In this document: positions 13,412 through 38,239 of the stretch, one piece after another
How positions within the stretch are numbered: the stretch's first letter is position 1
Layout: every line of letters starts with the position of its first letter
Assembly (NCBI GenBank): GCA_963786955.1
Contig: CAWBAT010000005.1
Location: forward strand, 192,001-256,000
DNA length: 64,000 bases
Direction: 5' to 3'
Origin: an uncultured Acidimicrobiia bacterium
Lineage (GTDB): Bacteria > Acidobacteriota > Terriglobia > Versatilivoradales > Versatilivoraceae
Position numbers and translations under genes: made by a program
Notes under the pieces: generated by a model
Told to the model about the DNA's origin: nothing
What the model saw: the letters and a program-made list of their open reading frames with translations, nothing else
Databases searched by the model: none

Positions 13412-14605
13412 TCACCCCCGCAGTATCCCCATTCCATACTTGTTAGCCAGGCGGACTGCTCGAAGCGGGTAATAGAGAAACGAAAGCTTCGAAGGCAGCG
13501 AAAGGAGAGTCCAATCCGCCAGAGTTGGAGCCAGCGCAATGCTGAATGAATAACGTAACCCGTCACGCAGCCGCTCCCGGACGCGGAGATGAAACAAGGC
13601 AGCATTGAAGCCATCCGAGGGTTTGCCCAGGTCAGAGAATAACCAGGCGTAAACTCTTGTAGCCAGAGTTTCCACTACGGGTATCTTCTGCATCGCGATC
13701 AACATTTCGCTGGGAACCTCGGCTCCCAATAGATCGTTAGCCAGAAAGAGCCCCAGTAGCAGCATGCGCTCGCAACCCATGACTCTGGCCTGCTCCAGGA
13801 TCTTCTCCCATGCGAGATTTTTCTCGGCCGCGAGCAGACGAGCGATGTCGCAGATCCAACCCAGATTGAGCCAGAGATGCTTGGCGCCATGGACACAAAG
13901 AAGCAACAGCAAATCCTCCGAGGAGAGGGTCAAGACTTCCGTGCGGCAAAGCTGGACCGGATGCAATCGCCTACTCACATCGACCCACTCCAAAGGGAAA
14001 GCAAAGTCTTTGGGAGTGAGTTTGGAATGGAGTTCAACACAGATCTGGTTCTTCCCTTTGACAATTGGCCACTGACGAAGAGAAACAAGATAAGCCTCCT
14101 CTTGAGCTGGAGCCAAAGGGTACTGAGCTTGGTATCCCATAGTTGACAGCAGCGCTTTGGCACGCGGAAGATTTTCCTCTCCAAGAATGATGTCGAGGTC
14201 TCCGAACTGCCGAAAGGCCAGGTTTCCATAAGCCTTCACAGCTAAGGTAGGGCCTTTAAAGGGAATCGCCAGAATTCCGTGGGACTCCAGACGATTGAGG
14301 ATCTCCAGCAATTCCCCCGCTAGTAACAGGTTTGTTTTGGAAGTCTCGTGAAAACCCTTTTGTAGCTGGTCCAGAATGGCTTCAGGCACCGCTGCTCGAC
14401 AATTCGAATGGATGTGCCAATACAAGAGGGGCAGCAGACCATGGCGGGAGGCCGATTCGGTCAGCACGTCCCATTTGAGCCCTTTTTCGACGAGAGCATG
14501 TATTCGTTCGGTCCTCTCCGGATCGCTCCCAACCGAGGCAACCAGGACTAGTAGCTCATCTTCGGGCCGCAGAGCGATTCGCCTATTAGATCTGACGCTG
14601 ATCAC
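13412..14605 (-). CDS. Nucleotidyltransferase family protein (lasso-cluster associated)
   Basis: FKGPTLA..AYG....RQFGDLDI, VELH and LCVHGAKH...WICDI motifs. Confidence 0.85.
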   Translation of the reverse strand: MISVRSNRRIALRPEDELLVLVASVGSDPERTERIHALVEKGLKWDVLTESASRHGLLPLLYWHIHSNCRAAVPEAILDQLQKGFHETSKTNLLLAGELLEILNRLESHGILAIPFKGPTLAVKAYGNLAFRQFGDLDIILGEENLPRAKALLSTMGYQAQYPLAPAQEEAYLVSLRQWPIVKGKNQICVELHSKLTPKDFAFPLEWVDVSRRLHPVQLCRTEVLTLSSEDLLLLLCVHGAKHLWLNLGWICDIARLLAAEKNLAWEKILEQARVMGCERMLLLGLFLANDLLGAEVPSEMLIAMQKIPVVETLATRVYAWLFSDLGKPSDGFNAALFHLRVRERLRDGLRYSFSIALAPTLADWTLLSLPSKLSFLYYPLRAVRLANKYGMGILRG

Positions 14606-14614
14606 TTGTCACTC

Positions 14615-15020
14615 TTTCCTATCTTATTCCCCCTTAGTAAAGGGGGCGCCGGGGGATGTCCTGCTTTGAGGTTTTCTTCACTGGCACATGCTGTCCCCCT
14701 TTTGCACAAGGGGGGACTTCAGGGGGGATTGGCATTTATAATTTGTGACTTTTGACTTTCGACCTTGGACCTTTTGCCTCTGCTTTTGGCTTTCCCCGTG
14801 CCCCCGTGGCACGCTTCCCTGTTTATCCTCGCGCCCTTTGCGCTTTTTTGTGGCAAAAATTGTTCTTATCCTTTTCCAATCCGCGTTTATTCGCGTTCAT
14901 CCGCGGCTTATTTTTCTTTGTGTCTTTGCGTCCTTTGCGAGAGGTAGCTTTTCAATCTCAAATCGCCATTTTCCCTTTGGGACTCCGAACTCAGGACTCA
15001 AGACTCTAGACCTTTGACCG
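14615..15020. repeat. Modular intergenic repeat block
   Basis: Two GC hairpins followed by heptamers, CCCCGTGCCCCCGTGG and ATCCGCGTTTATTCGCGTTCATCCGCGGC. Confidence 0.85.
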
Positions 15021-15026
15021 GGAACA

Positions 15027-17141
15027 TTATTTAACAACGCCCACGGCTCGCACAAAGCGCTCAACGTGGCTACCAGCTCCTGCCACTTGAAACCTCTCAC
15101 CTGCTTTATCTTCTCTCATCTGAGCCGCCCAGGATTGAGCATAATCCCCGCCTCGTGCCAGTAACTCCGCGTGACTTCCGGATTCAACAATCCGCCCGTC
15201 GGCCATCACGTGGATCACATCCGCATGCATGGCAGTGGTGAATCGATGCGTGATAATCAGCACCGTGCGCCCTTGGGCCAACCTGCTGAAGCGGTCGAGC
15301 CAGTCCGCTTCCGCCCAAGGGTCCATGGCACTGGTGGGCTCATCCAAGAGGATGATAGGCGCCTGCCGGAAGAATGCCCGTGCCAGGGCGATTCGTTGCC
15401 ACTCTCCCACGCTCAGCTCTGCACCATTCACAAACCACTTCCCGAGAGGATTGTCATATCTTTGAGGTAGGCGGTGGACAATGTCTTCTGCTCCGGCAGT
15501 TCGTGCGGCCTCTTCTATCGATTTCTGTGAGTTGACACGAGACATCTCCACCTCGACCCACTCTTCGGCTCCCCTCTCCCCAACACGGGAGAGGGGCTGG
15601 AGGGTGAGGGGGAAACCCCACGCGCTGCCTGCCTTCGCCAAATCTCCCAAAGCAATGTTTTCGGCTACGGTATTGTTAAAGTGGACAGGCTCCTGGAAAA
15701 GCACCGTGAGCTGCTTGCGTAAATCCTCAATCGGTAGATCACGCAAATCAGTCCCGTCCAATTCAATCAGGCCTTCGTCAGGATCATAAAAGCGGCAGAG
15801 TAACTTAATCAGAGTACTCTTCCCTGAACCGTTGAGCCCCACGACAGCCACTTTCTTCCCAGTAGAGATATTCAAAGAAAAATCCCATAGCGCAGGTTGC
15901 TGGCTGCCGGGATAGCGGAAAGTCACATGCCGGAAGCTGATCCCTTCTTCTTGATTACCTCCCTCTCCTCTTGGGAGAGGGTGTTCGACGAGCGGGTGAG
16001 GGGAGGAAGACCACGGATCAATAATCTTGCGCGAATCGGATTCTTGCTCAGATATGATTTGGGTAGTGGCGGTTCGTATCGGAATGGGGTGAGGTCCGTC
16101 AATTACCTTTGGCTTCAGCGCCAGGAACTCAAACAAATTGCCCAGAAACAGGCTGTTTGAATACAGGTGTCCGACGTTCTGCAAAAGCGATCGCATCAAC
16201 TGCTGTCCTTGATTGAAGGCCTGGGTGAAGAGTGCCAGGTCGCCCAGTGAAACCAGGCCTTGGACGGCTTTCCACACCATCCAACCCAGGGCTGCGCCAG
16301 TAATCAACAGTCCGAAGCTGCCGGCAGCCAGCTCAGCCAGACCCTGTTCTCCAGCCATCTGCACTCGTTCCTGCCGCAGTTTCCAGCGAAGAGCCTGGTA
16401 AGCCGCCTGAAAGCGCGGACCCATTCCAAAGAGCCGCAGCTCTGCGGCAGTCTCCCGGCTGGTGAGCAGCCAGTCATAGTACCAGCTACGGCGTTCTTCG
16501 GAAGTGCTCTTCAGTCTCCATTGGTGTTGGATCAGGGTATAGCGGAGCACAACATAAAGTGCCGGAAGAGTGCTGACGAAAACCGCCGCAGGCAGCCAGG
16601 CCCCGTAAGGAACCAGCACTGCGCCCATCGCCAGCAAAGTAATTCCGTTTTGGAGCAGACTACCGAGACTTTCGAGTAATTCGACAGGCCGGTAACTGGC
16701 TTCATCGCGGGCGCGATGCAGGTGGTCATAGAACTCGGGCAGATCATAAAAAGCCAGGTCGAGTTCCACGGATTTGGTGTGGACGAGTCCCGTGACATGA
16801 TCTTTCAGGAGGTCAGCCTGGATTGTCCTAACCCAGACCGTTGCGCTGCGCAGTAACTCTGTCAGCAAGAGCACGGCACCCATCAACCCCATGGGAACAA
16901 GCACCGGGCGGAAGGTTTGCCAATCGCCATGAGAACCGAGGACAGGGACGAGGCTATTCACCAGCCACCGGGTCAGATAAACCGTAACAACAGGCAACAG
17001 CCCCTGGAACACCAGAAGGACTGCCCAAGCTATTGTCCAGCCGCGCGTCGCTCTCCAAGCCAGGCGCAATGCTCGGGGAAGATTGGGCAGCTGGGCGGCA
17101 GCCTTTCTTAATTTGCCAATGAGGAGTGGAAGATTTTGCAA
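15027..17141 (-). CDS. ABC transporter fused permease/ATPase (putative lasso peptide exporter)
   Basis: TM domain, Walker A GLNGSGKS, signature LSVGEWQRIALARA, Walker B IILLDEPT; two in-frame palindrome-derived insertions. Confidence 0.9.
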   Translation of the reverse strand: MQNLPLLIGKLRKAAAQLPNLPRALRLAWRATRGWTIAWAVLLVFQGLLPVVTVYLTRWLVNSLVPVLGSHGDWQTFRPVLVPMGLMGAVLLLTELLRSATVWVRTIQADLLKDHVTGLVHTKSVELDLAFYDLPEFYDHLHRARDEASYRPVELLESLGSLLQNGITLLAMGAVLVPYGAWLPAAVFVSTLPALYVVLRYTLIQHQWRLKSTSEERRSWYYDWLLTSRETAAELRLFGMGPRFQAAYQALRWKLRQERVQMAGEQGLAELAAGSFGLLITGAALGWMVWKAVQGLVSLGDLALFTQAFNQGQQLMRSLLQNVGHLYSNSLFLGNLFEFLALKPKVIDGPHPIPIRTATTQIISEQESDSRKIIDPWSSSPHPLVEHPLPRGEGGNQEEGISFRHVTFRYPGSQQPALWDFSLNISTGKKVAVVGLNGSGKSTLIKLLCRFYDPDEGLIELDGTDLRDLPIEDLRKQLTVLFQEPVHFNNTVAENIALGDLAKAGSAWGFPLTLQPLSRVGERGAEEWVEVEMSRVNSQKSIEEAARTAGAEDIVHRLPQRYDNPLGKWFVNGAELSVGEWQRIALARAFFRQAPIILLDEPTSAMDPWAEADWLDRFSRLAQGRTVLIITHRFTTAMHADVIHVMADGRIVESGSHAELLARGGDYAQSWAAQMREDKAGERFQVAGAGSHVERFVRAVGVVK

Positions 17142-17205
17142 GGCAAGATTAACTTAATAGAATGCTCAGTGAAAAGGAACGAAGGACCATCGTGCATCGC
17201 CCCTC

Positions 17206-18198
17206 TCACAACCTGCAGTGAAGCGCCTTCTTGAATTTGACTTCAGAAGAAAGGTTTTCGAGGATGGCTTCTTTTACAGCGGGCAAAAGCGAAAGATCGT
17301 GTGGATAACTCAATTGATAAAAGATGGGTAAATTCACAACGCGGCTTAAACAGCTGAACTCAGTCGAAAGCATGTCCCGGTCACCAATATCCAGCTTATA
17401 AGCGTATCGCACTAGCTCCAGAAAGCTTTCTCTCGGTGAAATCGGAATGATACTGATAGGCCCATTATCTTCTGAAGGTTTAGAGGTGTTGAGGAAATAA
17501 ATCCTGCGTAAAATGACTGGATCGTCTTGAAAAAGAAGTGAATGATCTATTAAGTCAATTCTCTTCTTGCGCGTATAGTGGGCAACATCACAATATTCTG
17601 GTTCTCTATTAAAGAGGGAATCGACAATTTCCTTCCAAAGCCGCAGTCCTGGATATCCCGGAAATGCAAGAAGCTCTCCTTTGCTTTCTTCGAGCACCAG
17701 GCAGTCATCGGTAATAAAAGGGAATCCATCTTTCGCAAAACTTGCCGCCAAAGTAGATTTTCCCGCTCCTGTTTTACCGATGAATGCGATAGCACCCGTT
17801 TCACTCACTACTGAGCTGGCATGCAGCACAAGTTTTCCTCTTTTGCTGAGCGCAAGAGGGAATACTTGATCTAGAAACAAGTGTCTTATCGTCTCCAACG
17901 GGACTTCAGGGACGGGTGTACATTGAACATTCTCTCCGGTTCCGGAAATGTAAAAATCGGCTAGATCAGGGAAGCGGAGGAGGTAACGGTCCCCTAGTTT
18001 GCCAAAGTAAAGCCAAACCTCCTCTTCCGTTGGCCCCCATTGGTGAAACCATGGAACGAGGATCGAATTCTGCTCTCTTGGAGACAAAAGTTCAAAATTA
18101 AACTCCGGTTTGGTTTTGTCGGTGAGAAGCAATTCAGGCAACTGGATACTGCTCTCGATAACTGTTCCGTAAATTTTATGAAGCATCGACTCCTGCAA
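17206..18198 (-). CDS. HPr kinase-like protein (lasso peptide kinase family)
   Basis: LHASSV, Walker A GKTGAGKST and ITDD motifs; located within the lasso cluster. Confidence 0.8.
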   Translation of the reverse strand: MQESMLHKIYGTVIESSIQLPELLLTDKTKPEFNFELLSPREQNSILVPWFHQWGPTEEEVWLYFGKLGDRYLLRFPDLADFYISGTGENVQCTPVPEVPLETIRHLFLDQVFPLALSKRGKLVLHASSVVSETGAIAFIGKTGAGKSTLAASFAKDGFPFITDDCLVLEESKGELLAFPGYPGLRLWKEIVDSLFNREPEYCDVAHYTRKKRIDLIDHSLLFQDDPVILRRIYFLNTSKPSEDNGPISIIPISPRESFLELVRYAYKLDIGDRDMLSTEFSCLSRVVNLPIFYQLSYPHDLSLLPAVKEAILENLSSEVKFKKALHCRL

Positions 18199-18346
18199 GT
18201 GTCATTCGATGTAGTGGAAATAAATGGGACTTGGGCCAATACAAAAAGAAGGGTAAAGAGCTTGCATGCAAGGTATTTCAGTGGTTTTGACAAAAAGTCA
18301 AATCACGCCCCATCGATCCCCCCGATAGGACCAAGAATGGAGTCGA

Positions 18347-19511
18347 CTATATTGTGTAACGCGTAACTACCTCCGCCACAAACGTGGCAGCTTCACTTGG
18401 TGAGCGAAAGAGCTTGGGATGATGCTCGTATGCCGCATTCTCTATTTCCGCAAGGCATCTTTTGCCATCACACAGGCTCAAGACTGTAAGCCGAGCTTCT
18501 CCCCTTGATGTAAGCTTTGGCTTGAAATCGGGCTGGGTTCTCTGGAGATCTCTCTTGCCGAGCAACATTCCTTTCCAGGTAGAGTGAGAAAACCAATCTT
18601 TTCTGAAGCCTCGCTCTTTAGTTGATTCCGATGGTTTTTCAAATACCTCTAGTTCCCATGCAACGACCGAGGCCCCAGGTAGAAAATGAATCTTGATCTC
18701 AATCAAATTCCCTTCCGTAACTTTGATGGCCCGTTCAATTGGAAAGAAAAGATGTTTTCTCTGAATGGTATCAGGTCGAAGTGGTGAATTTGTGACCGCA
18801 AAGCTTTCTGACAACTGGGCTGAGAACCAGCCTGCAATTCCGTGAAGTCTACCCGTCCTTCTGGCTGTAGCAGAAGCTTGTAGGCCGAATGGTTTGGCTG
18901 ACACTGTTGTGAGATCCAGAGAAGCCCCCATAACCGGCTCGCTTAGCAATTGTCCGGGTTGAAACGTAAAGCGGTAAGCGCAGTTGACAGCTACTGAACG
19001 TCCAGGTGAGAAATTTAAACCGGTCGACGAGTCGTTCCAGAAGTCGATCTGAGCAAAACTTTCGTCAGCATTCGACAGGCGCAAGGAACAAATCAACCCG
19101 CGCTGGAATCAGTCTTCCCCCAGTTTTCAAAAAGCGGTCGCGAGCGTCACTGAGAGAATCCAATAGGCCAAATTCAGGACCGAATCCAATCTGGTCAGCA
19201 ATGACGACATCAACCTTTTCTGGAAGGTCCACCCGCATAGAAAGGTCCTTGATGAAGACCACTCTATCCTGATACCCGTTGATCTCGAAAAGTTGGCGGG
19301 CCAGTTCAATGATTGCCCCTTCCTCAATCGAATAAATTCGTCGAGCTCCCGCCTGGCAGGCCAAAAGGCCGAGAATGCCTGTTCCCGCTCCAAGATCGAG
19401 AACAATATCTCCGGGTTTGACAACCTGAGCGATTGCTTGGCGAAAGGCCGAGACACGTACCTCATCTGCCAAGTAGTGGCGGTGCTCATGGAGAATCGCT
19501 GAGAAATCCAT
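18347..19511 (-). CDS. PRMT-fold SAM-dependent methyltransferase with a C-terminal PqqD/RRE-like region, frameshifted at about 19065
   Basis: VLDLGAGTGIL, LPEKVDVVIADQIG, GRLIP and GRLHGIAGWF; tail LSLCDGKRCLAEI; the two ORFs join at GAA-TGC-TGA / GCT-GAC. Confidence 0.75.
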
Positions 19512-19546
19512 TTCTTCTAAAACAGTCCCCCCTCTTCACCCACCAC

Positions 19547-19717
19547 TCATACCATGCCCATCCCGGATAGGCCGTCGGGAACTGAGCCATTTTGCCCCCG
19601 AGTCAGCTTGGAAACGCTTCCGTAATCCAGCAATCTGGGGCTAGCATACACTTTCTTTCCCTTATTTTTTTCTTCACGTTCTTGCATCGTTGGATGGATA
19701 TCCGGTAACTGGTGCAT
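19547..19717 (-). CDS. Lasso peptide precursor, 56 aa: MHQLPDIHPTMQEREEKNKGKKVYASPRLLDYGSVSKLTR-GQNGSVPDGLSGMGMV
   Basis: Hand-translated; AGGAG RBS at 19726-19730; leader motif YxxPxLxxxGxxxxxT with Thr at -2; core begins with Gly and has Asp at position 8. Confidence 0.92.
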   Translation of the reverse strand: MHQLPDIHPTMQEREEKNKGKKVYASPRLLDYGSVSKLTRGQNGSVPDGLSGMGMV

Positions 19718-19743
19718 AATGATTTCTCCTTCAGAATTTGGTC

Positions 19744-21696
19744 TCAGACTGCATGAAGAGCGACAGCCGCCTTAAGCGTCTCACCCTGACGCGGCAAATC
19801 TTGCCTGTTCAAAAAAATGGTGTTGAACCAAAGTTCGATGCCAAAAATCATCCATAGTGGCCAAATGTGTCTAACATCATCCCCCTTGTTGTAGAATTGT
19901 GTCATTTCCTGATACATATGCCGCACACTGTTTTCGGCCACCCATCCCTGAGATACTAGGCTTAGCGAATCCCAGAGCTGCTCGGCGCCGAGAGTCTGGA
20001 ACGTCTCGACAAAAAGATGGGTGAAATCCGCTTTTGTGAGTCGCTGGCGTACTGTTTCAGGCAAATAACCTTGGCATGCCTGGCGAAGAACGAATTTGTT
20101 TTGGTTACATTGGAAGCGCTGGTCTTCTGGCAGTGCCAGTGCAAATTCAACAACCCGCCGATCATGAAGTGGGTGCCGCCCTTCTAATCCATGCCACGAT
20201 GCTTCGCGTTCTTCCATCTCGCTGGCGTGGACCACAAAACCATTAGTCGCTGCCAGATAGATTTCCCAGGGGGCAAATCCTAACGGTGATGGGCGCATCG
20301 CCTTTGTTTCAATTCGCTCAGCAAGTCGTGTTCGACCAGCAAAGCCTCTCTCGATCCAGCCGGGAGTAGGCCGTCTGTTCTCCTTTCCAAGCATTCGCCT
20401 AACCCTCGAGCGCGCACTCTGGGGAAGCAGTGGCCAGAGGCCGTAATGTAATAGTCGAGACAAGGTAACAGCAGCTCCTTCAGTTCGGAACACAAATCCG
20501 AGCTCTCGAACTAATTCTGGAACTTTGAGCCGCTGCAAAAGGTCGGCATAGCGGTACCGGCTGCCCCCCAACCACTCATCACCACCCACTCCACTCAGCA
20601 CGACGCGGATCCCTCTGTCCCTAACCAGTTGGTTCACCGGGTTCGCAGTGCCGCCATTAGGATAACCGGGAAAATCTTGGTATCGCTGTGTTCGCTCGGA
20701 ATATAAGCTGAGTTCGCCGACGTGATGGCGAGTCGAGTGCCACCTGAGATGCCATATCTTGATAACGTCATTTATATAGGCGCTCTCATCGCAGGGATAA
20801 CCGGGATAAATTGTAGAAAAAGCCTCTATCTCGGAGATACAAGAACTTCCTTCCTCTGCAAGGGAAGCGGCCACACCTGCAACTGACGACGAATCCAGCC
20901 CTCCACTCAGCGACACTCCCACTGGCGTGGTGCTCCGCAGACGACAGCGCACAGCCTCTCTGAAAATCTCCAGAAAGTGTTCAGCATAGTCTTCGTCCGA
21001 CTCGTAGCGAATCTCTGGGCATGGATCGATGGACCAGTAGCGTTGTTTCCGGAATGAACTGGGACTGAGTCGCAAGTAGTGGGCTGGTGGCAGCCGGAAG
21101 ACATTTTGAAAGAGCGTCTCCTCTTGATGAGTGATAGCACTCGCCAAATATTCGGCAATCATACCCTCATTCGGTTTACGTCGAACTAAGGGGTCGATAA
21201 AAAGCGGAGGCAACTCGGAGGAAAATAGAAATGCCCGGCCCGTGTTCACATAGTAGAACGGCTTTAATCCTAGAAAGTCTCGAGCGCAGAAAAACACCTG
21301 TTGCCGCTTGTCCCAAATTGCAAAAGCAAAGTCACCAATGATTCGCTTCGGGCACTCTTCTCCCCAGCAATCGTAGGCCTTCAGGACTAGTTCAGCATCT
21401 GTATCATCTCGAAGCCTGCCGCCTTTGGCTTCAATGGCAGCTTTCAACTCGTCTCGATTATCGACACGCCCGTCAAGCGTAAGACAGAGATTGCCGGTTT
21501 CATCAAGCAGGGGCTGTTTCTCGTGAAGGGCCTCAGGCGTCGTGCAAAGCATTTGATGACCAAGCCCGACCGGACCGTCAATCCAGTACCCCACCCCGTC
21601 AGGCCCGCGGTGTGAAATCGCGTCGGTCATCCGCTGCAGTAACCTGCGATCAACGGGAGCCCCATCCAAATTATAGATGCCAGCAATGCCGCTCAT
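19744..21696 (-). CDS. Lasso peptide cyclase (asparagine synthetase-like C protein)
   Basis: AsnB fold with SLSGGLDSS and SGVGGDEW; N-terminus MSGI lacks the catalytic Cys; flanked by B1, B2 and precursor genes. Confidence 0.88.
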   Translation of the reverse strand: MSGIAGIYNLDGAPVDRRLLQRMTDAISHRGPDGVGYWIDGPVGLGHQMLCTTPEALHEKQPLLDETGNLCLTLDGRVDNRDELKAAIEAKGGRLRDDTDAELVLKAYDCWGEECPKRIIGDFAFAIWDKRQQVFFCARDFLGLKPFYYVNTGRAFLFSSELPPLFIDPLVRRKPNEGMIAEYLASAITHQEETLFQNVFRLPPAHYLRLSPSSFRKQRYWSIDPCPEIRYESDEDYAEHFLEIFREAVRCRLRSTTPVGVSLSGGLDSSSVAGVAASLAEEGSSCISEIEAFSTIYPGYPCDESAYINDVIKIWHLRWHSTRHHVGELSLYSERTQRYQDFPGYPNGGTANPVNQLVRDRGIRVVLSGVGGDEWLGGSRYRYADLLQRLKVPELVRELGFVFRTEGAAVTLSRLLHYGLWPLLPQSARSRVRRMLGKENRRPTPGWIERGFAGRTRLAERIETKAMRPSPLGFAPWEIYLAATNGFVVHASEMEEREASWHGLEGRHPLHDRRVVEFALALPEDQRFQCNQNKFVLRQACQGYLPETVRQRLTKADFTHLFVETFQTLGAEQLWDSLSLVSQGWVAENSVRHMYQEMTQFYNKGDDVRHIWPLWMIFGIELWFNTIFLNRQDLPRQGETLKAAVALHAV

Positions 21697-22286
21697 ATCC
21701 GGTTCACTTCCTGCAAGAGGGTTGGATCAAAAGGCGAGAAGCGCTCGTGAATGTCGCTGCCCTCATTGAGAGGTTGTCCGAAGCACTCCACCCAGGCGTG
21801 GGCTTCAAGTAAAGCTGCTTCTTTACGCACACCGATTCGCAAGGTGCTCTCCATCCCATTCCGCCGCAAAAACCACCAGGTAACAAGCGACTGCTTGAGG
21901 CAGTTGGCCCGAAAGGGGCCGTGGTTAGCCGCGAGCCTCACCACTCTGGCAACGAGGGCTGCCTTGGCTTCGAGATCGGAGGGGCGAGAGCCTTTAGAGT
22001 CCACGGGAGTCAGTGGTTCGCTAGGGACACACCCCGGCACGCTCCCGCTTGCCACCCCTCTCAAGAGGGGACTTCTAGCCATGTCACCACCCCCTAGTCC
22101 TTCGAACAGTTCCTCCCCCTGTCTGTGTTCGAATGAAGGAGAAGCCCTTTGGGCTAGAAAAGAATAGATCCGCCGGAAGCCAAGGATGCGCATGGCCAAG
22201 GCCGCGAGTGGGAGCAGCAGCAAGGCCTGGAAAAAGATTTGCTTTTCTAAACGGCTCAGTTGAATAAGCTTGAAGAGTTTATTCAT
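21693..22286 (-). CDS. Lasso peptide B2 leader peptidase (transglutaminase-like)
   Basis: NCLKQSL (Cys), LRIGV and AHAWVE (His) motifs; carries an in-frame palindrome-derived insert. Confidence 0.9.
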   Translation of the reverse strand: MNKLFKLIQLSRLEKQIFFQALLLLPLAALAMRILGFRRIYSFLAQRASPSFEHRQGEELFEGLGGGDMARSPLLRGVASGSVPGCVPSEPLTPVDSKGSRPSDLEAKAALVARVVRLAANHGPFRANCLKQSLVTWWFLRRNGMESTLRIGVRKEAALLEAHAWVECFGQPLNEGSDIHERFSPFDPTLLQEVNRI

Positions 22287-22563
22287 CCTTAATCTCGACC
22301 AATTCCTGGTCCACTAGTTTTTGAAGTAAATCTTCCAGGTCTTTTCGAAGAATCTCGGGCTCCACCTCATATTCTGACAACAAGGTGTCATACGCTTCTT
22401 GCAGCGAGGGAGCTGTCGTCAAGACAGTCCACATGCGAGTACCCATTTCATCCAGTCCAAAATAGCGTTCGCTTTTAAGGCTGAGTATCACCGATTCACT
22501 ACCAAGAACATTGATGAGAGTATCCGATGGGATGGAAACGCGTGTTGTATTCGTTATGGTCAT
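22279..22563 (-). CDS. Lasso peptide B1 / PqqD-family RiPP recognition element
   Basis: 94 aa, ESVILSL..ERYFGLDEMGTRMW...EYEV..E.LRKDL..LL..L; AGGAG RBS. Confidence 0.9.
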   Translation of the reverse strand: MTITNTTRVSIPSDTLINVLGSESVILSLKSERYFGLDEMGTRMWTVLTTAPSLQEAYDTLLSEYEVEPEILRKDLEDLLQKLVDQELVEIKDE

Positions 22564-22599
22564 AATCTTCTCCTGAAAGGACTCACTGCATAACTCGCG

Positions 22600-22852
22600 G
22601 AGGACATAGAAAATGGGCGGAGTGCACGCGGATAAACACGGGAACGATTAACCGCCAAGAACGCCAAGTACGCAGAGAAAAATGAGCCGCAAATGGAAGA
22701 TGGCGATTGGCGATTGAAAAGCTAACTCTCGCAAAGAACGCAGAGTGCGCAAAGAGAAATAAAAGAGTAAGTGTCGTCAATTAGACCTTGGGCCTTGTAC
22801 TACGGACTTTTGACCTCCTAACTTGCAATTGCTTTTTGCGTTTTTTGCGCCC
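22600..22852. repeat. Modular repeat block whose last module is interrupted by the DUF1670-like cassette
   Basis: CGCAAAGAACGCAGAG-type motifs, then TTTTTGCGTTTTTTGCGCCC, which resumes as TTTTTGCGGCGATA at about 24562. Confidence 0.75.
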
Positions 22853-22961
22853 TTATAGTTGTGCAATATTGCTTATTCTCTTGCCCCTGGCAGGGAAGGA
22901 GCCCGAAGGGCGACTGGAATGCCAGGGGCAAGAGAACTCATTTCGACAGCAGGAGCCCCTC

Positions 22962-23786
22962 TTGATCAACAACACCAGTTTGCAACGTTGGGACCGCATC
23001 AGTGCTAAATCCATTGACACTCAATTTAAGACCGCCATGCAGCGGGGGCTGAATTGTTCCCCTTTCGAAGCCCAGATCATGGTCGAAAAAGTCCATGAAC
23101 TTTATGGACCCTTGTTCGACAACTCAACCACTGTGCAGCCCGGACAGATTCAACTCATGGTAGTGGATGCCTCTGTGCCTCCCGGTGTTCCGCTGTCCCA
23201 AGCTGCTCAGAAGCTGGCCACCCTCACCCTGCTGGATAAAGAGGAAGACAACCAGATCCAGCAGCGGCAAACCATCCCGGCCCTGCGGCAACATCGTCTG
23301 ATGCGAGTTGCCGAAGAAGCCTTCCAGCAAGGGGGTCTGCTGACTTTGGAGGATCTGGCCCTGTTGTTTAATTGCGGCCTGCGCACTTTGGTTGGCGACT
23401 TGGCCGCATTGCGCCAGCAGAATCTGGTGCCGCCTCTTCGTTCCACCGTCAAAGACATCGGTCGAGCTGTAACCCATCGCCGCCTGATTGTCTCACTGTG
23501 GCTGGAAGGCAAAGAGTATTCCGACATCGCCTTGCATTCTCATCACAGCGTTTCTTCAGTGGCCAACTACGTGGAAAAATTCAAACGCTGTGCCGCCTTG
23601 CTCCAACATGGCTTTGATCTGACGACCACCGCTTTCCTGATTCGCTTGTCCGCCCCTTTGGTGGAGCAATTCCGCCAGTTGCATCAGACGGCCAAACCGG
23701 CGGTCCACCGGCAGCAGGAACTCTTGGGCTTCTTAAAAAAAAGCTCAGCCGATCTGCCGAGCCGCCCAACCCGGAGGTCCCAGTGA
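22962..23786 (+). CDS. DUF1670-like HTH protein 1
   Basis: RVAEEAFQQGGLLTLEDLA..F...RT...D and P.RSTVKDIGRAVTH; likely TTG start at 22962 after AGGAG (22951-22955). Confidence 0.7.
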   Translation: MINNTSLQRWDRISAKSIDTQFKTAMQRGLNCSPFEAQIMVEKVHELYGPLFDNSTTVQPGQIQLMVVDASVPPGVPLSQAAQKLATLTLLDKEEDNQIQQRQTIPALRQHRLMRVAEEAFQQGGLLTLEDLALLFNCGLRTLVGDLAALRQQNLVPPLRSTVKDIGRAVTHRRLIVSLWLEGKEYSDIALHSHHSVSSVANYVEKFKRCAALLQHGFDLTTTAFLIRLSAPLVEQFRQLHQTAKPAVHRQQELLGFLKKSSADLPSRPTRRSQ

Positions 23787-24532
23787 ATCCTCCGGCCCAA
23801 TCCATAAAACATTACCGCTCTGCTCAAAACCGCTTTCTCCGCCCTTCCATCCAGCGGTTTTTGCAAAGCCAGTGCCCCAAGCTTTTTGGCCCCTTGCTTG
23901 CCGAACGTTTGGCGGAAAAAATTGTCGAGCTAGTTGAAAAACAGTTGCCCCATAAAGATCATCTGCAGCCGGGCCAGATGGTCTGGAATGCGGTCTCTCA
24001 ACAATCCAGACCTAACAGCCCGAACCTGCAATTGCTCCCAGTCCTGTTGACGTTGGTCGATCCTTCCGATGTCGAGCAACTGGCAAAGGGCTCCTCGATG
24101 ACAACCATCGCTAAAAAGGCCATCGCCCGTATTTGCTGCGAGGCCCATCAACAAGGCGCCTTGTTGACCATGCGGGATATCGGCCTTTTTTGCTGGCGGC
24201 AAAACTCGAGGCTTTCCTCCTTGCGGGCTGCCTGGGAAAAAGAACATGACACCACTCTCCCACACAGCGGCAGTTTGCAGGACTTTGGCTCTTGTATCTC
24301 TCACAAAAAAACCATCGTCAAAAAGGCCATCCTTGACAAAAAAGACCCGAAACGGATCGCTCTCGAAACCAAACATTCACAAAAGGCCGTGGACCGCTAT
24401 CTGAAGGATTTCCATCGGGTCAAAACCTGTTTCCAACACAATCAAAGCCTCGAGTTCATCGCTCAAGTCACTGCCTTGTCACCTTTCCTGGTCAAACAAT
24501 ACGTGGAGATAATCAATGCCTCTAATCTCTAA
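23783..24532 (+). CDS. DUF1670-like HTH protein 2
   Basis: RICCEAHQQGALLTMRDI, PHSGSLQDFGSCISHK and HSQKAVDRYLKDF; GTGA overlap with the upstream paralog. Confidence 0.7.
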   Translation: MNPPAQSIKHYRSAQNRFLRPSIQRFLQSQCPKLFGPLLAERLAEKIVELVEKQLPHKDHLQPGQMVWNAVSQQSRPNSPNLQLLPVLLTLVDPSDVEQLAKGSSMTTIAKKAIARICCEAHQQGALLTMRDIGLFCWRQNSRLSSLRAAWEKEHDTTLPHSGSLQDFGSCISHKKTIVKKAILDKKDPKRIALETKHSQKAVDRYLKDFHRVKTCFQHNQSLEFIAQVTALSPFLVKQYVEIINASNL

Positions 24533-24655: not shown

Positions 24656-26152
24656 TCAATTCACTCTGGTAAAGGCACCGGCTGCTTTGGCGCGGACCGC
24701 CTCGCGGTTATCCCGCTCTGCCGTCTCCTCTGCTACATCACGCACAACCTCGCGAACGGATCCCTGCAATCGCTCGCGCAGGCCGCGGTGCAGCACCTCG
24801 ACAAAAGGGGCTACGATCATTGCATTATTGCCAGACTCAAACTTCCGGGTGAGATTGATATAACCAAAGCCATCCAGAGGAATCCTCAAGTGCCAGCAAT
24901 TATCCACCGTTTCCGTCCCTAGTTGTGCTTCGAAAACCTGTTCCAGCAAATGGCAGCGCACTTCGATGAAACCAAGGCTCTGGCAGGTTTCTCGAATGGC
25001 ACTCCAGAAATCTTCAACCGTTTTGGCTGCGGCCAGCGTCTCTTCAAAGCGCCGCAGGAGCAAATGCCCGCTCAGCATGCGCCGGAAAGCCCCTGCCAGT
25101 ACCAGGCGGCGGGCGACGCCGAACTCAACATAACCCAGGTGTTGCACCCCAACCCAGGTAACCGCGCAAAACAGCAGAATGATGAGCCCCTGGCCCCGGT
25201 TTTGCAGAAAACCTTGGAGTAACGAGAAGGCGGCTCCGAGCGCGCATAGCCCGTAGAGAACCAAAGCGACACGGCGGGGAGTGAATCCGCGATCAAGCAG
25301 ACGATGATGGATGTGTCCCCGGTCTGCCTTGAAAAGCGGCTCGTGGTGCAGATAGCGGCGCACCACCGAAAGGCAGACATCCAGAAGCGGAATGGCGAGG
25401 GTCATGAGGGGTGCGGTCATGCCCAGAAAGGTGGCGGACTTCTGGCTCCAGATCACCCCAAAACAGCCCAGCAGAAAACCAATCAACAGACTTCCGGAAT
25501 CCCCCAGGAAAATGGAAGCGGGATTGAAATTGTAACGCAGAAAACCCAGCAACGCACCGGCCAGAGGAATTGTGGCCAGAGCCAGCGGCACATTTTTCTG
25601 CAGTAAGGCGGCAACAAACGTCGTGACGGTGGCAAAGAGTCCCAGGCCCGAAGCTAGCCCGTCCACCCCATCAATCAGATTGAAGGCGTTCATGCAAGCT
25701 ACTAGCCAGAGAAGCGTCAGCGGCAATGTCCACCACCAGCTATCGGCGCCATGTCCTGCCACTGATAAGATGCGGACGCCGGCCCAGTAAGCGAGTAATG
25801 AAGCACTCACCTGGCCAACCAACTTTTGCCAAGGTCGCAACCCGAACAGGTCATCCGCCAGACCGACGGCGAAAATCAGGGCAGCAGCGGGCAAGAGCAA
25901 CAGAGCCTGATGAATATTTTTAGCAATGAGGTTGCCTGCGTTCAATGGGGACAGTAGCAGCAGCCCATAAGCAGCCAGATAGGCCGCTACGATTGGGACA
26001 CCCCCCATTCGCGGAATGGGATTTTGCTGCAGCTTACGCTGGCCATCGGGCTGATCCACCATACCCAGGCAACGAAAAGCGTTTCGGCACAGAGGGGTGA
26101 GGATCAACGAACAGAAAAAAGAAACAATTCCGAGTATGAGAAGTGAATACAT
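24656..26152 (-). CDS. WecA/MraY-family undecaprenyl-phosphate sugar-1-phosphate transferase
   Basis: PRMGG, GLADD, NAFNLIDGVDGL, IFLGDSGS and DRGHIHHRL motifs. Confidence 0.9.
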   Translation of the reverse strand: MYSLLILGIVSFFCSLILTPLCRNAFRCLGMVDQPDGQRKLQQNPIPRMGGVPIVAAYLAAYGLLLLSPLNAGNLIAKNIHQALLLLPAAALIFAVGLADDLFGLRPWQKLVGQVSASLLAYWAGVRILSVAGHGADSWWWTLPLTLLWLVACMNAFNLIDGVDGLASGLGLFATVTTFVAALLQKNVPLALATIPLAGALLGFLRYNFNPASIFLGDSGSLLIGFLLGCFGVIWSQKSATFLGMTAPLMTLAIPLLDVCLSVVRRYLHHEPLFKADRGHIHHRLLDRGFTPRRVALVLYGLCALGAAFSLLQGFLQNRGQGLIILLFCAVTWVGVQHLGYVEFGVARRLVLAGAFRRMLSGHLLLRRFEETLAAAKTVEDFWSAIRETCQSLGFIEVRCHLLEQVFEAQLGTETVDNCWHLRIPLDGFGYINLTRKFESGNNAMIVAPFVEVLHRGLRERLQGSVREVVRDVAEETAERDNREAVRAKAAGAFTRVN

Positions 26153-26194
26153 ATTAGATCAATGGATTAATAAAATTGCCGATTGAAGAAGGGC

Positions 26195-26630
26195 AATAGT
26201 TCAGAGTCCGGAGTCAAAGGTCTAAGGTCAAATGTGCAAAATGTCGAATGTCGATTGCCAAATGTCGAATGAAACGCTGGTAGCCTCATTGAGCGTTATC
26301 GGCCTGCTGTTTTCTGCTTGCTGCCTTCTGAACTCTGACTTTTGACTTTAGACCTCAGACCTTGGATATTCATAAAGGGGGCGCCGGGGATGTCCTATTT
26401 TGTGAATTCTTCATTTGGCATTCGTCATTCAGCATTTATCATTTGTGACTTTGGACTTTCGGCCTTCGACATTGGACACTCATTCAGTTGGCTTTCCCCG
26501 TGTTCCCCGTGGTTCATACTCAATGTTTTCCCCCTTGTATTTAAGGGGGGATTACAGGGGGGTCCGCCCATAGCGTCCTTTGCGAGAATAAGTCTTTGAC
26601 CTTGGACCTTAGACTTTGGACCTTAGACTC
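26195..26630. repeat. Modular intergenic repeat block with mixed orientation
   Basis: Purine-strand heptamers at 26195-26270, then pyrimidine-strand modules and hairpins. Confidence 0.8.
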
Positions 26631-27878
26631 TCGGTACTCACATGGCTCTCAAGACGAGATGCCACCGGGTAGTCAGCGAATGGCGATGCGCCTCTTGTCA
26701 TCAGCTCCGCCATTTGACCGCACAGCACTTCTTTCGAGAAAACACGCCTCTCTTGGGACTCTGTCCGAGGAATCCGGGTAGCTGTCAGGATGTGAGTAAC
26801 CACCAGATCCACCTGGCCGTGCGGGGCGATATAGGCGGGTCCCCCGAGCGGCCATTGCTGGACCAGATCGACAACATGGCTCTCAGTGGGGCCGACATAC
26901 AGGAAAGGGATTCCGAGGTGCAGAATGTTATAAACCTTGCACGGATGCAGAATCCCCACAAAGGGATCTCCCATCACGACCACATGCAGGTCGGCTGCGG
27001 AAAGCGAGCTGGAGAGCTGATCCAATGGTTGGTACGGCAGAGTAACGATATTATGCAGTCCATGGTGAAGTTGGAATTGCTTCACTTTTGCAAATTCGCT
27101 GCCCCCCCCCACGAAACAAAAAACGATTTCAGATTGCCCGGCCAGTCGCAAAGCTGCCTTCAGCAGGGTATCCAGGGAATGGCAAGGACTGTGATTCCCG
27201 GAATACATCACCACAAACTTCCCCGTAAGTCCGTGGCTGCTGCGAAAAGTCTTCGCGCCCGATTGAGTCATAGCCAATAACGTCGTCGTGGGACCAGGGC
27301 GGGATCACCGCGATCTTCTCTGCGGCGATACCTTTCTCAATCAGCCGCTGCTTCATGAAGCGATCTAGGACGACGAGAGTACGGGCTTCCCGGAAGCTGA
27401 AACGAGAGAAAGCTACCAGCAAGCGAGCCGCCACGGATCCCGGTTCAAGCCACCCGGCGGCCAGAGCTTCGTCAGGATTAAGATCCATCACCCAGCAGAT
27501 CAGTTGTCCTCCCCGAAGAGTGACTAGCAGCGCGGCAACAAAAGAGATTAGCGGAGGGGAGGTCATGGCTACGACCAGATCGAAGCGCGGCAACATCAGA
27601 CTACGGACTGAGCAACTCAGGATAAAACTCGCGAAGTTGAGCATTCGCCGCCAACGCGTATTTTTCCCTAGACCCAGGGACGAAATGCGAACGATCCGGA
27701 CTCCCTTCCAATTCTCCCGCTTTGGAAACATGAGGCTGGGATCATCATAGCCTCGAGCGCCGGCCAGAACTGTCACCTGATGGCCTTGTTCCGTCAAGTG
27801 GGTAGCCAGATCAGCCGCGTACTGAGCGGTGGCAACGACGTCCGGATAGAACGTCTGGTTCAAAATAAGAATTTTCAT
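26609..27878 (-). pseudogene. GT4 glycosyltransferase (WcaI/WbuB-like), frameshifted near 27270
   Basis: MKILILNQTFYPD and MTSPP in the upstream ORF; VMYSGNH...HPCKVY in the downstream ORF. Confidence 0.8.
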
Positions 27879-28066
27879 TCGGAAATTTCTGATTACGCCG
27901 GTGTTATTATTTTTTAAGCGGTCGCCGGCGGATTTCCTGTTTGCTGGAGATTTTCAATCGACATTGGCATTTTCCATTTTCTGACCTCCGGACTCTAGCC
28001 TTTCGACCTTCGACCTTAGACCTTTGACTCTGGACTATTTATTTTGACCTTAGACCTTGGACCTAT

Positions 28067-29833
28067 TCATCCTTTTCCCGCCGCTGCAAACGCCTGTTTG
28101 GTTTCGCTCAGATGTATATTCTCGGCCTTTGCCAAGACAAAAGGCCCCATAACGAGCAAGTCCATCTGGGTTCGCAAAAAGCAATCCAAGGCTTCAGCAG
28201 GCGTATTGACAATAGGTTCATTCTCGTTGAAGGAGGTATTAAGCAGTACGGGCACTCCGGTGATCTCTTCGAAACGTTTGATAAGGCCCCAGTACAAAGG
28301 ATTCACATCTCGTTCAACCGTTTGCAGCCGGCCCGTACCATCGCCGTGGGTGACAGCCGCGATCCGCTCTTGCTGGTGGGGTTTGACCCGATAAGCCATC
28401 ACCATAAACGGAGAAGGATGGTCGATCTCGAAATAATCAGAAGTAGCCTCCGCCAAAATCGAAGGGCAAAACGGGCGAAACGGCTCCCGATACTTGATAC
28501 GGCGGTTCAAGATGTCCTTCATCTCCTTCCTTCGCGGGTCGGCCAAAATGCTGCGATGGCCCAAGGCGCGCGGGCCGAATTCCATCCGACCCTGGAACCA
28601 GCCTACGATCTTTCCATCGGCAATGGCGCTGGCCGTGCGATCGAGCAGTTCGCTCTCCTCAAGACGGTGATATACGGCGGCAGAGTCTTCCAGGGCACAG
28701 TCGATATCAGTCTCTCCATACGCCGGGCCATAATAGACATGCCTCATCACAAACGATCGGGGCTGCTTCAGCACTTGGTGTTGCACGTAGAGTGCGGCTC
28801 CAATCGATGTTCCCGCATCATGGGCAGCTGGCTGGATGTAAATTTCTTGGAAGGGAGTCTTCTCAAAGATCTTTCCGTTAGCCGCACAATTGAGGGCTAC
28901 GCCCCCGGCCAGGCAGAGCCGTTTGAGGCCAGTTCGTCGGTAGACTGTATTCAAAAGGGCAAAATAGTTTTCCTCCAAAACGGCCTGCACCGAAGCAGCC
29001 AGGTCGGCATGTTCGGGGAAGATTTCACTTCGGGCCAGGCGAGGCTTGCCAAAAACATCTGACATTTTCCCGGAAAAGACAGTTCCCAAGACCGGCTCCC
29101 CTGAATCCCAGGTCATATCGACGCCTTGGCTGTGATGCAAGAAATAATCCAGGTTCAGACGGCACTGTCCCTCGCGCGTCTGCACCACATCGCGCACTCG
29201 CGGAAGAAAGCGAGGCTCACCATAGACTGCCAGGCCCATCATCTTGTACTCATCGCCGTATTTGGGAAAGCCCAGGAATTGAGTGAAGGCGGTGTAAAAG
29301 AGCCCGAGCGAGTGTGGGAATCGCACCGACCCAAGAACCTTGATCTGGTTGCCTTTCCCGACGCCCCACATGACGCTGCTGAAGTCTCCAAAACCATCCA
29401 CCGACACTACGGCAGCTTCCTCGAAAGGCGAGGCAAAGAAGGCGCTGGCCAGGTGAGCGCGATGATGTTCGACATGATGCACTCGCGCCTGTGCCGGAAT
29501 ATTCAGGCCAGATTCGTGGATCTCGCGCCCCAACTGGGCAACGCGCCAGCTATTGCTGGCCCTACCCCTCACTCGGTTCCAATCGCCGGGTCGTGTGGTC
29601 ACACGCAGCAGTTTTCGCCAAAGCTGGGCGCGGGGATCGCGTGAAATGGCGACGTGTCCGAGCTCTTGAGCTTCCGTCCCTTTCAAACAGGCTTCAATGG
29701 CCAGAGCCGGGAATCCCGCCCAGTGTTTGACGCGATTGAAGCGCTCCTCCTCGACCGCGAAACTCAAGTCTCCGTCGACTAACAATGCAGCCGACGCATC
29801 CCCATGAAAAGCATTAATACCGAGAATATTCAT
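28067..29833 (-). CDS. Carbamoyltransferase (NodU/CmcH family)
   Basis: HGDASAALL, EEERFNR.KH, EHHRAH, AGGVALN, EFGPRALGHRS and LNTSFN motifs. Confidence 0.92.
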   Translation of the reverse strand: MNILGINAFHGDASAALLVDGDLSFAVEEERFNRVKHWAGFPALAIEACLKGTEAQELGHVAISRDPRAQLWRKLLRVTTRPGDWNRVRGRASNSWRVAQLGREIHESGLNIPAQARVHHVEHHRAHLASAFFASPFEEAAVVSVDGFGDFSSVMWGVGKGNQIKVLGSVRFPHSLGLFYTAFTQFLGFPKYGDEYKMMGLAVYGEPRFLPRVRDVVQTREGQCRLNLDYFLHHSQGVDMTWDSGEPVLGTVFSGKMSDVFGKPRLARSEIFPEHADLAASVQAVLEENYFALLNTVYRRTGLKRLCLAGGVALNCAANGKIFEKTPFQEIYIQPAAHDAGTSIGAALYVQHQVLKQPRSFVMRHVYYGPAYGETDIDCALEDSAAVYHRLEESELLDRTASAIADGKIVGWFQGRMEFGPRALGHRSILADPRRKEMKDILNRRIKYREPFRPFCPSILAEATSDYFEIDHPSPFMVMAYRVKPHQQERIAAVTHGDGTGRLQTVERDVNPLYWGLIKRFEEITGVPVLLNTSFNENEPIVNTPAEALDCFLRTQMDLLVMGPFVLAKAENIHLSETKQAFAAAGKG

Positions 29834-29869
29834 GAAATTTGTGGAGGATCGAGCTACTGCGAGACTGTT

Positions 29870-30200: not shown

Positions 30201-30226
30201 AGACTGCCATTGTGATTTCGTCATTG

Positions 30227-33009: not shown

Positions 33010-33016
33010 GGGCGTT

Positions 33017-34986: not shown

Positions 34987-35111
34987 CAGTTTTCTATGAT
35001 TAGACTAACTATTAATAGAGTTCAGAGATATGAGTTACGACGATCTGCAATCGATTTAGGTTTATATTGTCAAATTCTACTTGAACCAAAATTGCATTCA
35101 GAATTACAGGA

Positions 35112-36267: not shown

Positions 36268-36289
36268 AGTTCAATTGACTATAAGCTTA

Positions 36290-36785: not shown

Positions 36786-36808
36786 TCTTACAATCAGCAA
36801 ATAAGCCA

Positions 36809-38236: not shown

Positions 38237-38239
38237 AGA

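Follow-up and report, generated by a model that had tools for sequence, protein, structure and literature searches.

The value of lasso peptides lies in their use as very stable scaffolds and as antibiotic leads, and their stability normally comes from bulky plug residues. In this work we analysed a 64,000-nucleotide stretch of DNA from an uncultured bacterium of the Terriglobia (contig CAWBAT010000005.1, positions 192,001 to 256,000; the whole stretch is called the window in what follows), in which a small open reading frame (ORF) on the minus strand, gene A, probably encodes the precursor of a class II lasso peptide, with a 40-aa leader and a 16-aa core. The peptide would be made by an operon of the order B1-B2-C-A-MT-K-D-N, which holds, besides genes for leader binding, leader cleavage, cyclisation and export (B1, B2, C and D), those of a candidate peptide kinase (K), a nucleotidyltransferase (N) and a methyltransferase (MT). 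Judging from the sequence of the gene and of its neighbours, we put the probability of this reading at about 0.8.

Statements about published systems rest here on excerpts of the cited papers. The bsf cluster of Bradymonas sediminis (BsfA/B1/B2/C/K/N/D; PMC10368454) has the same A, B1, B2, C, K, N and D set as the window and a YxxPxL leader; both have a split B1/B2, an asparagine-synthase-type cyclase and an ABC exporter, and the likeness of K to BsfK is one of description. BsfK phosphorylates the ring residue Ser3, aided by B1 (PMC10368454), and neither the bsf precursor nor that of the window ends in Ser, so the kinase would act elsewhere. The window differs from bsf by a Thr instead of an Ile at leader position -2, by an added methyltransferase with the fold of protein arginine methyltransferases (PRMTs) and by the placement of A after C. 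According to the same paper, the mature bsf peptide was never obtained. In the paeninodin and pseudomycoidin type (PadeK, ThcoK, SyanK and PsmK/PsmN), a homologue of HPr kinase modifies the linear precursor before folding, and N-type enzymes add sugars to the phosphate (PMC8498205). The hosts of these kinases are Firmicutes and Proteobacteria, their target is a C-terminal Ser and the excerpts describe no methyltransferase with them, whereas the window core ends in Val.

Longipeptin A, from the actinomycete Longimycelium tulufanense (PMC10664482), has a Gly1-Asp8 ring and a Met13, both of which are found in the window core. In longipeptin A, S-methylation makes Met13 a sulfonium at a position that corresponds to a steric plug, which its authors call unprecedented among RiPPs (peptides that are made on the ribosome and modified afterwards; PMC10664482). 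The sulfonium was reported to show a 62-Da loss of Me2S in MS/MS and, in NMR, a Met gamma-CH2 signal moved downfield (PMC10664482). Longipeptin A differs in its host and in a Trp-Trp biaryl link made by P450s, and its candidate methyltransferase, the MTHFR-like LopH, is unconfirmed in the excerpted text (PMC10664482); the methylation of longipeptin A was observed, whereas that of the window family is predicted from genes alone. Methylation of lasso peptides or their precursors by enzymes dependent on S-adenosylmethionine (SAM) is also described for lassomycin/StspM and for cellulonodin-2 and lihuanodin (PMC8498205, PMC9266682, PMC13352647). StspM-type enzymes are C-terminal carboxyl O-methyltransferases and those of cellulonodin-2 and lihuanodin are PIMT-type Asp methyltransferases, whereas the MT of the window has a type I PRMT fold; for lasso peptides the excerpted reviews give O-methylation of the C-terminus and of Asp only (PMC8498205, PMC9266682). 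The eukaryotic enzymes PRMT6, PRMT1, PRMT2 and PRMT8 have the Rossmann and beta-barrel fold in common with MT, which differs from them in that the stretch aligned to 'ATHWKQ' of PRMT6 is replaced and a three-helix C-terminal extension is added, and the window core has no Arg.

The literature that was searched held the core string nowhere and nothing relevant that joins lasso peptides with an arginine methyltransferase or with methionine-rich peptides, and no characterised member of the precursor family was found in it; the Acidobacteriaceae precursors in the supplement of PMC10368454 may include relatives.

The precursor gene and its cluster

The following elements make up gene A.

19547-19717, minus strand: precursor gene A, 56 codons with an ATG start, translation MHQLPDIHPTMQEREEKNKGKKVYASPRLLDYGSVSKLTRGQNGSVPDGLSGMGMV
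19726-19730, minus strand: Shine-Dalgarno sequence AGGAG, 8 nt before the ATG of A, read from the sequence
19598-19717, minus strand: leader of A, 40 aa, ...KKVYASPRLLDYGSVSKLTR, assigned by the match to NF033521 and by Tyr-17, Pro-14, Leu-12 and Thr-2
19550-19597, minus strand: core of A, 16 aa, GQNGSVPDGLSGMGMV, with Gly1, Asp8 and the Met-rich tail placed by the family alignment and profile search
19547-19549, minus strand: stop codon of A

An earlier note on this DNA had proposed a lasso precursor at 19547-19717, without naming the strand, and had credited it with a strong ribosome-binding site; the ORF and the leader and core strings are exact, the gene is read from the minus strand, and the AGGAG listed above is the site in question. 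A second in-frame ATG at 19687, ten codons on, is without a comparable ribosome-binding site. Residues 24-42 of A pass the NCBI lasso-leader model NF033521 with 22.0 bits against a curated cut-off of 19, and Tyr-17, Pro-14, Leu-12 and Thr-2 are correctly spaced if the cut lies between Arg40 and Gly41. Excerpts of PMC10368454 name these four positions as recognition elements of B1 and B2. Together with the placement of A after B1, B2 and C, these observations bear out the description of the leader as canonical.

In the core, Asp8 is the sole acidic residue, and there are no basic or aromatic residues and no Cys. It begins with Gly1, its Asp8 falls within positions 7-9 and, being without Cys, it can have no disulfide, as in class II. 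Since Asp8 is the only acidic core residue, a class II macrolactam between Gly1 and Asp8 is the only product open to the standard pathway, as the note had proposed. Its remark that the tail is without an aromatic plug is likewise correct.

A starts 26 nt past the stop of the cyclase gene C on the same strand. A Pfam scan of A gave no match, and a word-based homologue search recovered only A itself; because that search requires exact 5-mers, its null result is an artefact, and a profile search gave thousands of relatives. Because the leader model is passed, the cyclase lies 26 nt upstream and an equivalent ORF occurs at the same place in syntenic Terriglobia clusters, A is beyond chance, and its status as a genuine lasso precursor gene is confirmed. 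The word 'unannotated' in the note holds for the ORF track that it used and not beyond it, as the exact 56-aa protein has already been called in a public collection with NCBI and ENA as sources.

The genes around A are the following.

22279-22563, minus strand: B1, PqqD-type leader-binding protein (RiPP recognition element, RRE), 94 aa, Pfam PqqD E 4.2e-15
21693-22286, minus strand: B2, transglutaminase-like leader peptidase, 197 aa, Pfam Transglut_core3 E 3e-22
19744-21696, minus strand: C, asparagine-synthase-like lasso cyclase, 650 aa, Pfam Asn_synthase and GATase_7
19065-19511, minus strand: N-terminal SAM-binding fragment of MT, 148 aa, 60% identical to residues 17-162 of the 401-aa enzyme of genome G038, with generic methyltransferase Pfam matches
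18347-19096, minus strand: C-terminal ORF of MT in the +1 frame, with its MT part at 18347-19066, PRMT beta-barrel and three-helix extension, 45% identical to G038 residues 168-401, Pfam PRMT_C E 1.5e-9
17206-18198, minus strand: K, candidate HprK-related peptide kinase, 330 aa, NCBIfam TIGR04352 HprK_rel_A E 6.8e-11
15027-17141, minus strand: D, ABC exporter (permease and ATPase), 704 aa, Pfam ABC_tran E 7.2e-32
13412-14605, minus strand: N, NTP_transf_5 nucleotidyltransferase, 397 aa, Pfam PF14907 E 1e-62

On the minus strand the order of transcription is B1-B2-C-A-MT-K-D-N, and all of these genes are intact in the window except MT, which is split. B2 scores 86.2 bits against the NCBIfam lasso B2 model NF033537 (cut-off 33) and C 528.3 bits against the lasso isopeptide cyclase model NF033535 (cut-off 525), the closest cyclase to C being that of G038, with 45% identity over the full length; the MsbA-type NCBIfam matches of D are all under their cut-offs. 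A scan of 14500-23000 gave 6 promoter-like sites where 5.1 were expected and 8 terminator-like sites where 9.6 were expected, and as these counts are at chance level, no operon boundary can be called from them. Over K and the 3' part of MT the GC content is slightly lower, down to 0.47, than the roughly 0.50-0.56 of the surroundings, which is no evidence of an island. Small shares of the stretch, at most 0.18 of the sampled words, occur in 20 DNA sequencing runs; no RNA run is listed among the runs that hold it, which is not evidence either way.

In seven members of the K family a GxxGxGKS P-loop is invariant, accompanied by a TDD motif and a conserved His; a comparison of K with solved structures by sequence gave nothing at E<0.03. 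The window core ends in Val and not in the C-terminal Ser that accepts phosphate in the paeninodin type, so the C-terminal-Ser mode of these kinases is excluded and only an internal Ser, as in bsf, is possible. The first tail Met has a Ser or Thr immediately in front of it, or one to two residues ahead, in 7 of the 10 closest cores. For this reason Ser11 is favoured over Ser5 as the putative target of K.

A large family with methionine-rich tails

The cluster of G038 has the same gene order, an equivalent small ORF and an intact 401-aa MT, and the same order with an equivalent precursor is found in G043, G084, G098 and G091, with variants in six further loci. A tblastn search with the window proteins found MT and K together in 11 of these 11 wider loci, directly adjacent in 10, and every one of the 11 has a precursor with a Shine-Dalgarno-like site. 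An alignment of ten precursors shows no variation at Tyr-17, Pro-14, Leu-12, Gly-8 and Leu-3, and nine of the ten have Thr-2; residue -1 is Arg in the window precursor and Gln in most relatives.

The ten syntenic precursors were combined into a family profile, which was searched against 1.84 billion representative proteins. This search for homologous precursors, which the earlier note had called for, yielded 4,985 proteins at E<=0.001, 73 of them at E<=1e-10, and none of the nearest is characterised. Core statistics were taken from the best 150 of the 4,985 matches, of which 146 are short and fit the leader pattern, four longer ones being set aside. Among these best 146, Gly1 is found in 101 and Thr-2 in 143, the first Asp or Glu stands at position 8 in 127 and at position 9 in 18, and the tail holds Met in 124 and Cys in 80. 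A second count of tails from the best 150 matches, with a slightly different length filter, gave 145 cores, of which 78 end in 'CL', 62 hold M-x-M and 32 have an aromatic tail residue. Where Asp or Glu is at position 8 (128 cores among the best matches), Met is commonest at positions 13 (58), 14 (41) and 15 (36), which fits the suggestion of the note that Met13, Met15 or tailoring would matter for threading. The tail motif D-G-x-S-G-M-x-M recurs among the best matches, and the nearest cores among the matches parsed, GQGGGSADGMSGMGLL, GQTGSSPDGGSGMAMN, GQSGPANDGSSGMAMA and SGGSGGTEGLSGMAMA, all come from metagenome proteins that are unnamed or called 'hypothetical'.

The predicted window peptide is thus a typical member of the non-'CL' subgroup with a D-G-x-S-G-M-x-M tail, and in the cores compared a tail without an aromatic plug is typical of the family at large and nothing special to this gene. 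As predicted from these precursors and their neighbours, the family is large, comes from soil bacteria, has Met-rich tails and travels with a peptide kinase and an unusual methyltransferase. The note had not recognised a described lasso peptide here, and indeed the peptide is new, in that neither it nor its family is characterised in the searched literature, yet it is one of thousands of similar precursors. The interpretation in the note is supported overall: its lasso reading holds, with the corrections that the peptide is no oddity but one ordinary member among very many, and that the cluster also has K, N and MT, of which the note says nothing.

Several relatives depart from this pattern. 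Some longer profile matches, P0002 (382 aa), P0018 (199 aa), P0005, P0019 and P0133, have 2-5 tandem leader motifs, each with a stretch resembling a core behind it; such proteins could be precursors with several cores, or gene calls that read through. Locus L055, from the same genus as the window (G002:C20:19000-38000), has B1, B2 and D about 90%, 79% and 72% identical to those of the window, with C, K and MT only 26-46% identical, a quite different core (TVGTKAKPDAAVTVVKHE) and several genes that match in two pieces; it looks like a predicted C-A-K-MT cassette that has been swapped. Two cyclase genes and two precursors lie in one cluster at L052 (G342:C328), one precursor with a Met-rich tail (…PDGNSGMGMGW) and the other with a Lys/Gln-rich one (…GEQNDSQKFKRP). 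The G043 precursor recurs at L086 (G043:C48:1-8300) as an orphan second copy, with few core differences and without B1, C, K or MT in the 8 kb fetched. The precursor of L050 (G232:C3, 8655-8792) has Val at -2 and the core GTGSINTD-VMR, in which three residues follow Asp8; its predicted tail is too short to thread, and the gene may be truncated or its product branched-cyclic.

The methyltransferase and the tails it accompanies

Intact MT genes are found in the orthologous clusters of G038, G043, G084 and G098, and a profile of the C-terminal half of MT has matches in 29 of 401 sampled Terriglobia genomes. In sequence, the G038 enzyme resembles type I PRMTs (PRMT6 E 1.6e-28, residues 20-293), and its structural model (pLDDT 78.8) is matched to PRMTs by Foldseek with E ~1e-25 and a TM score of 0.72-0.80 on the target. 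Judged on this intact orthologue and its model, MT is a predicted type I PRMT homologue with the Rossmann and beta-barrel PRMT fold. In the HMMER alignment, 'ATHWKQ' of PRMT6 corresponds to 'PIERRN' in G038 and to 'TIQRKH' in the window; MT has Asp in place of the first Glu of 'SEWMG', and its second acidic residue is displaced by one place. The 'ATHWKQ' stretch and the acidic pair are what we take to be the THW loop and the double-E loop of the arginine-holding active site of PRMTs, and in the alignment to PRMT6 these loops are not conserved in MT.

About 95 residues of the G038 enzyme lie past the PRMT match and form three confident helices (pLDDT 95-98) without a beta-sheet. Their top structural match among 48,161 chains is the PqqD structure 3g2b (VIA-align Z 6.5, 1.9 A over 49 residues, 26% identity), and they match the lasso B1 structures 6jx3 and 5v1u with Z 5.0; VIA-align Z values under 8, which include all of these, are in the chance range for small helical bundles. 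Foldseek found nothing for the extension at E<=0.001 (E=2), hhalign against B1 proteins gave a probability of 0.24%, and Pfam only a weak HTH_47 match. On this mixed evidence, a leader-binding, RRE-like role of the extension is possible. A complex prediction of the G038 enzyme with its precursor scored 0.07 where the mark is 0.32, which speaks neither for nor against binding.

A narrower two-pattern locus search with the C-terminal half of MT found only G038 and one 28%-identical Myxococcota locus. That locus, L015, comes from a metagenome-assembled genome, and a 469-aa ORF in it is 28% identical to the beta-barrel half of MT; its ORF list shows no obvious cyclase ORF of ~600 aa, no domain search having been made there.

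The precursor profile matched 59 of the 401 sampled Terriglobia genomes, or 57 of 399 without G090 and G117, which were excluded throughout the comparison that follows. For 49 further matches the flanking DNA was taken, about 7 kb to either side, and 61 loci in total were scanned with profiles of A, MT, K, B1 and C, which gave 67 precursors with the leader pattern, 23 with MT within 4 kb and 44 without. Of the latter, 4 may not be lasso precursors, as no Asp or Glu stands at positions 7-10 of their cores; G315 accounts for one row, with a tail Met and an MT 8 kb away, and the orphan precursor copy (G043, contig 48) for another. A tail Met is present in 17/23 precursors with MT and in 6/44 without (Fisher p 1.4e-6), and core Arg shows the opposite distribution, 7/23 with MT and 33/44 without (Fisher p 6e-4), both p values being overstated because related genomes are not independent. 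When Cys is counted along with Met, the tails are 18/23 and 9/44. By genus, most tails hold Met in 10 of the 14 genera with MT and in 1 of the 17 without. The kinase is within 4 kb in 60 of the 67 cases, 22/23 with MT and 38/44 without, and homologues of N are found in 26/61 loci, 15/23 with MT and 11/38 without, as far as a single-sequence search of limited reach can tell. In these loci the predicted kinase is a general partner of this leader type, and the predicted methyltransferase is an add-on that follows Met-rich tails.

The relatives that have only the kinase (loci L087-L132) typically have the tail D-G-G-[KR]-F-P-x-x-[KR]-T-x-x, rich in Arg, Lys and aromatic residues, and the conserved Thr near its C-terminus is a plausible kinase site. 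Methylation of a peptide arginine was considered as the role of MT and rejected as the main reading: the window core has no Arg, the -1 Arg is mostly Gln in the relatives, and Arg runs opposite to the presence of MT.

S-methylation of Met is the most economical guess, since the ring size is that of longipeptin A and Met in the family peaks at position 13. In its full form this proposal makes the PRMT-fold enzyme a second, unrelated peptide Met S-methyltransferase, with a sulfonium at Met13, and perhaps Met15, that would lock a thread without a plug and, together with phosphorylation of a Ser by K, would give a zwitterionic, doubly tailored lasso; the gene associations suggest it, and we hold it to be tentative and, taken as a whole, on the unlikely side.

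Alternatively, MT may act elsewhere than on Met sulfur, namely on the C-terminal carboxylate, on a phosphate installed by K or on a backbone or side-chain nitrogen, its co-occurrence with Met coming from metal binding or from a lineage effect. We regard this as quite possible, at somewhat less than even odds. The conserved Arg-Arg/Lys pair in 'PIERRN' and 'TIQRKH' could hold an anion, MT and K occur together in 22 of the 23 MT loci, 5 of the 23 MT-associated tails have neither Met nor Cys, and the lasso methylations in the excerpted reviews are O-methylations (PMC8498205, PMC9266682). However, a C-terminus is universal and the kinase is present in 38 of 44 loci without MT, so that neither explains why MT tracks Met specifically.

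In the window, the MT gene breaks at about 19064-19070, where the N-terminal ORF ends in ...LAPVEC-TGA (TGA at 19065-19067) and a 1-nt frame change follows; the sequence continues in the +1 frame as ...DESFAQIDFW, where intact orthologues read APVEC-x-E-x-x-x-Q-I-E-F-W. A contig of run X3, from a relative that is 90-95% identical, stops matching at 19063, and its overhang has 4 letters against 5 in the window before the shared CATTCGACAGG, so that its coding strand reads ...VECAESFAQ... in frame (one contig of depth 2.6, with the overhang interpreted by hand). In run X1, contigs that are identical to the window extend over the precursor, and none of them crosses the MT break. At least three other genes of the window are likewise split mid-domain into overlapping ORFs on the minus strand, among them the following.

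33017-34986, minus strand: split asparagine-synthase-like gene, with positions 1-75 of the GATase profile falling in one ORF and 72-123 in the ORF after it
26609-27878, minus strand: split GT4/GT1 glycosyltransferase, N- and C-terminal domains in separate ORFs
35112-36267, minus strand: second glycosyltransferase, probably split

The split genes suggest assembly indel errors, and for MT such an error is at least as likely as a true pseudogene. A programmed +1 frameshift at UGC-UGA-C in MT was considered and set aside, as no slippery re-pairing is seen and other window genes are also split. If the frameshift were real, the cluster could be decaying or silent in this strain and the peptide absent or made only in unmethylated form. 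This is unlikely, even though MT is in two frames with a TGA after ...APVEC and again in two frames in G091 and G002, B1, B2 and C of G002, which belongs to the same genus, also match in two pieces, and clusters of the Bsf type are described in the excerpts as silent in the laboratory (PMC10368454). Against it stand the other genes split mid-domain in the 64-kb window, the relative in run X3 that is in frame across the break site, and the intact state of B1, B2, C, A, K, D and N.

Beside the lasso operon, a large cluster of polysaccharide type extends over ~24656-39759 (minus strand), with several GT1, GT2 and GT4 glycosyltransferases, a Glycos_transf_4 initiating transferase (24656-26152), a carbamoyltransferase (28067-29833) and an asparagine-synthase-like amidotransferase. 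Between the two, tandem DUF1670 genes (E 8e-39 and 1e-47) at 22788-24532 on the plus strand are divergent from the lasso operon and could be cluster regulators.

The predicted product and its significance

In the pathway that we propose, the leader would be bound by B1 and cleaved by B2 between Arg-1 and Gly1, C would activate the side chain of Asp8 with ATP and join it to the amine of Gly1 around the tail GLSGMGMV to give, from a linear core of 1504.665 Da, a macrolactam of 1486.654 Da ([M+H]+ 1487.662), and D would export the lasso product; these steps are those of the established lasso pathway. Family conservation suggests Ser11-Gly12-Met13-Gly14-Met15 as the functional part of the tail, in which Met13 and Met15 would flank the ring instead of aromatic plugs. 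By analogy with known homologues, K would place a phosphate on Ser11 or Ser5 while the precursor is still linear, and N may decorate it. In the most speculative step, an intact MT would methylate the tail, most likely on a Met sulfur, to give a sulfonium plug like the S-methyl-Met13 of longipeptin A; as the MT gene is split in the assembly, the local product may be without the methyl group. By calculation, a phosphate would add 79.966 and a neutral methylation 14.016 to the mass, and a sulfonium would have an M+ of 1501.678.

The following points weigh against the reading of A as the precursor of a class II lasso made and tailored by this operon. B1 scores 53.2 bits against the NCBIfam model lasso_PqqD_Bac, under its cut-off of 80, and K 41.8 bits against TIGR04352, under its cut-off of 200. 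The MT gene of the window lies in two frames, the link between MT and Met is a correlation among related genomes, and the five MT-associated precursors with neither Met nor Cys in the tail do not follow it. The tail has no bulky residue, so that a stable thread is not assured, and the lasso product itself is a prediction from the genes.

It is doubtful, and rather improbable in our view, that the peptide is cut and cyclised into a product that is unthreaded and branched-cyclic, or into a readily unthreading lasso. In the tail, which has no aromatic, basic or acidic residue, only Leu, Met and Val have a side chain larger than that of Ser, and the family member of G232, with its three-residue tail after Asp8, is too short to thread. 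However, a large conserved family has such tails, Met-rich and without a plug, as its norm, and this speaks for a shape that is functional and selected; the excerpted report on longipeptin A places the Met13 sulfonium at the plug-equivalent position in a ring of the same size (PMC10664482). That the ORF is a chance open frame and no gene is already refuted: the missing Pfam match and the word-based search that recovered only A are outweighed by the curated leader model, the ribosome-binding site, the synteny across genera and the thousands of profile matches.

Read as a lasso precursor, gene A belongs to a family of thousands without bulky plugs, which combines Met-rich tails with a kinase, often a nucleotidyltransferase and often a PRMT-fold methyltransferase. 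The window itself is of more modest value, being one more member, with its MT split in the assembly, and G038, G043, G084 and G098 are better starting points; the Met tail without a plug and the tailoring pair of kinase and PRMT-fold enzyme nevertheless raise it above a routine lasso hit. That MT follows Met and avoids Arg turns the role of the enzyme into a concrete, testable hypothesis with a chemical precedent. It links the family to longipeptin A, which in the excerpts seen is the only known RiPP to bear a sulfonium and whose own methyltransferase is unconfirmed (PMC10664482). If the hypothesis is true, thousands of RiPP clusters of soil bacteria would carry an arginine methyltransferase scaffold of the animal type whose target has become sulfur.

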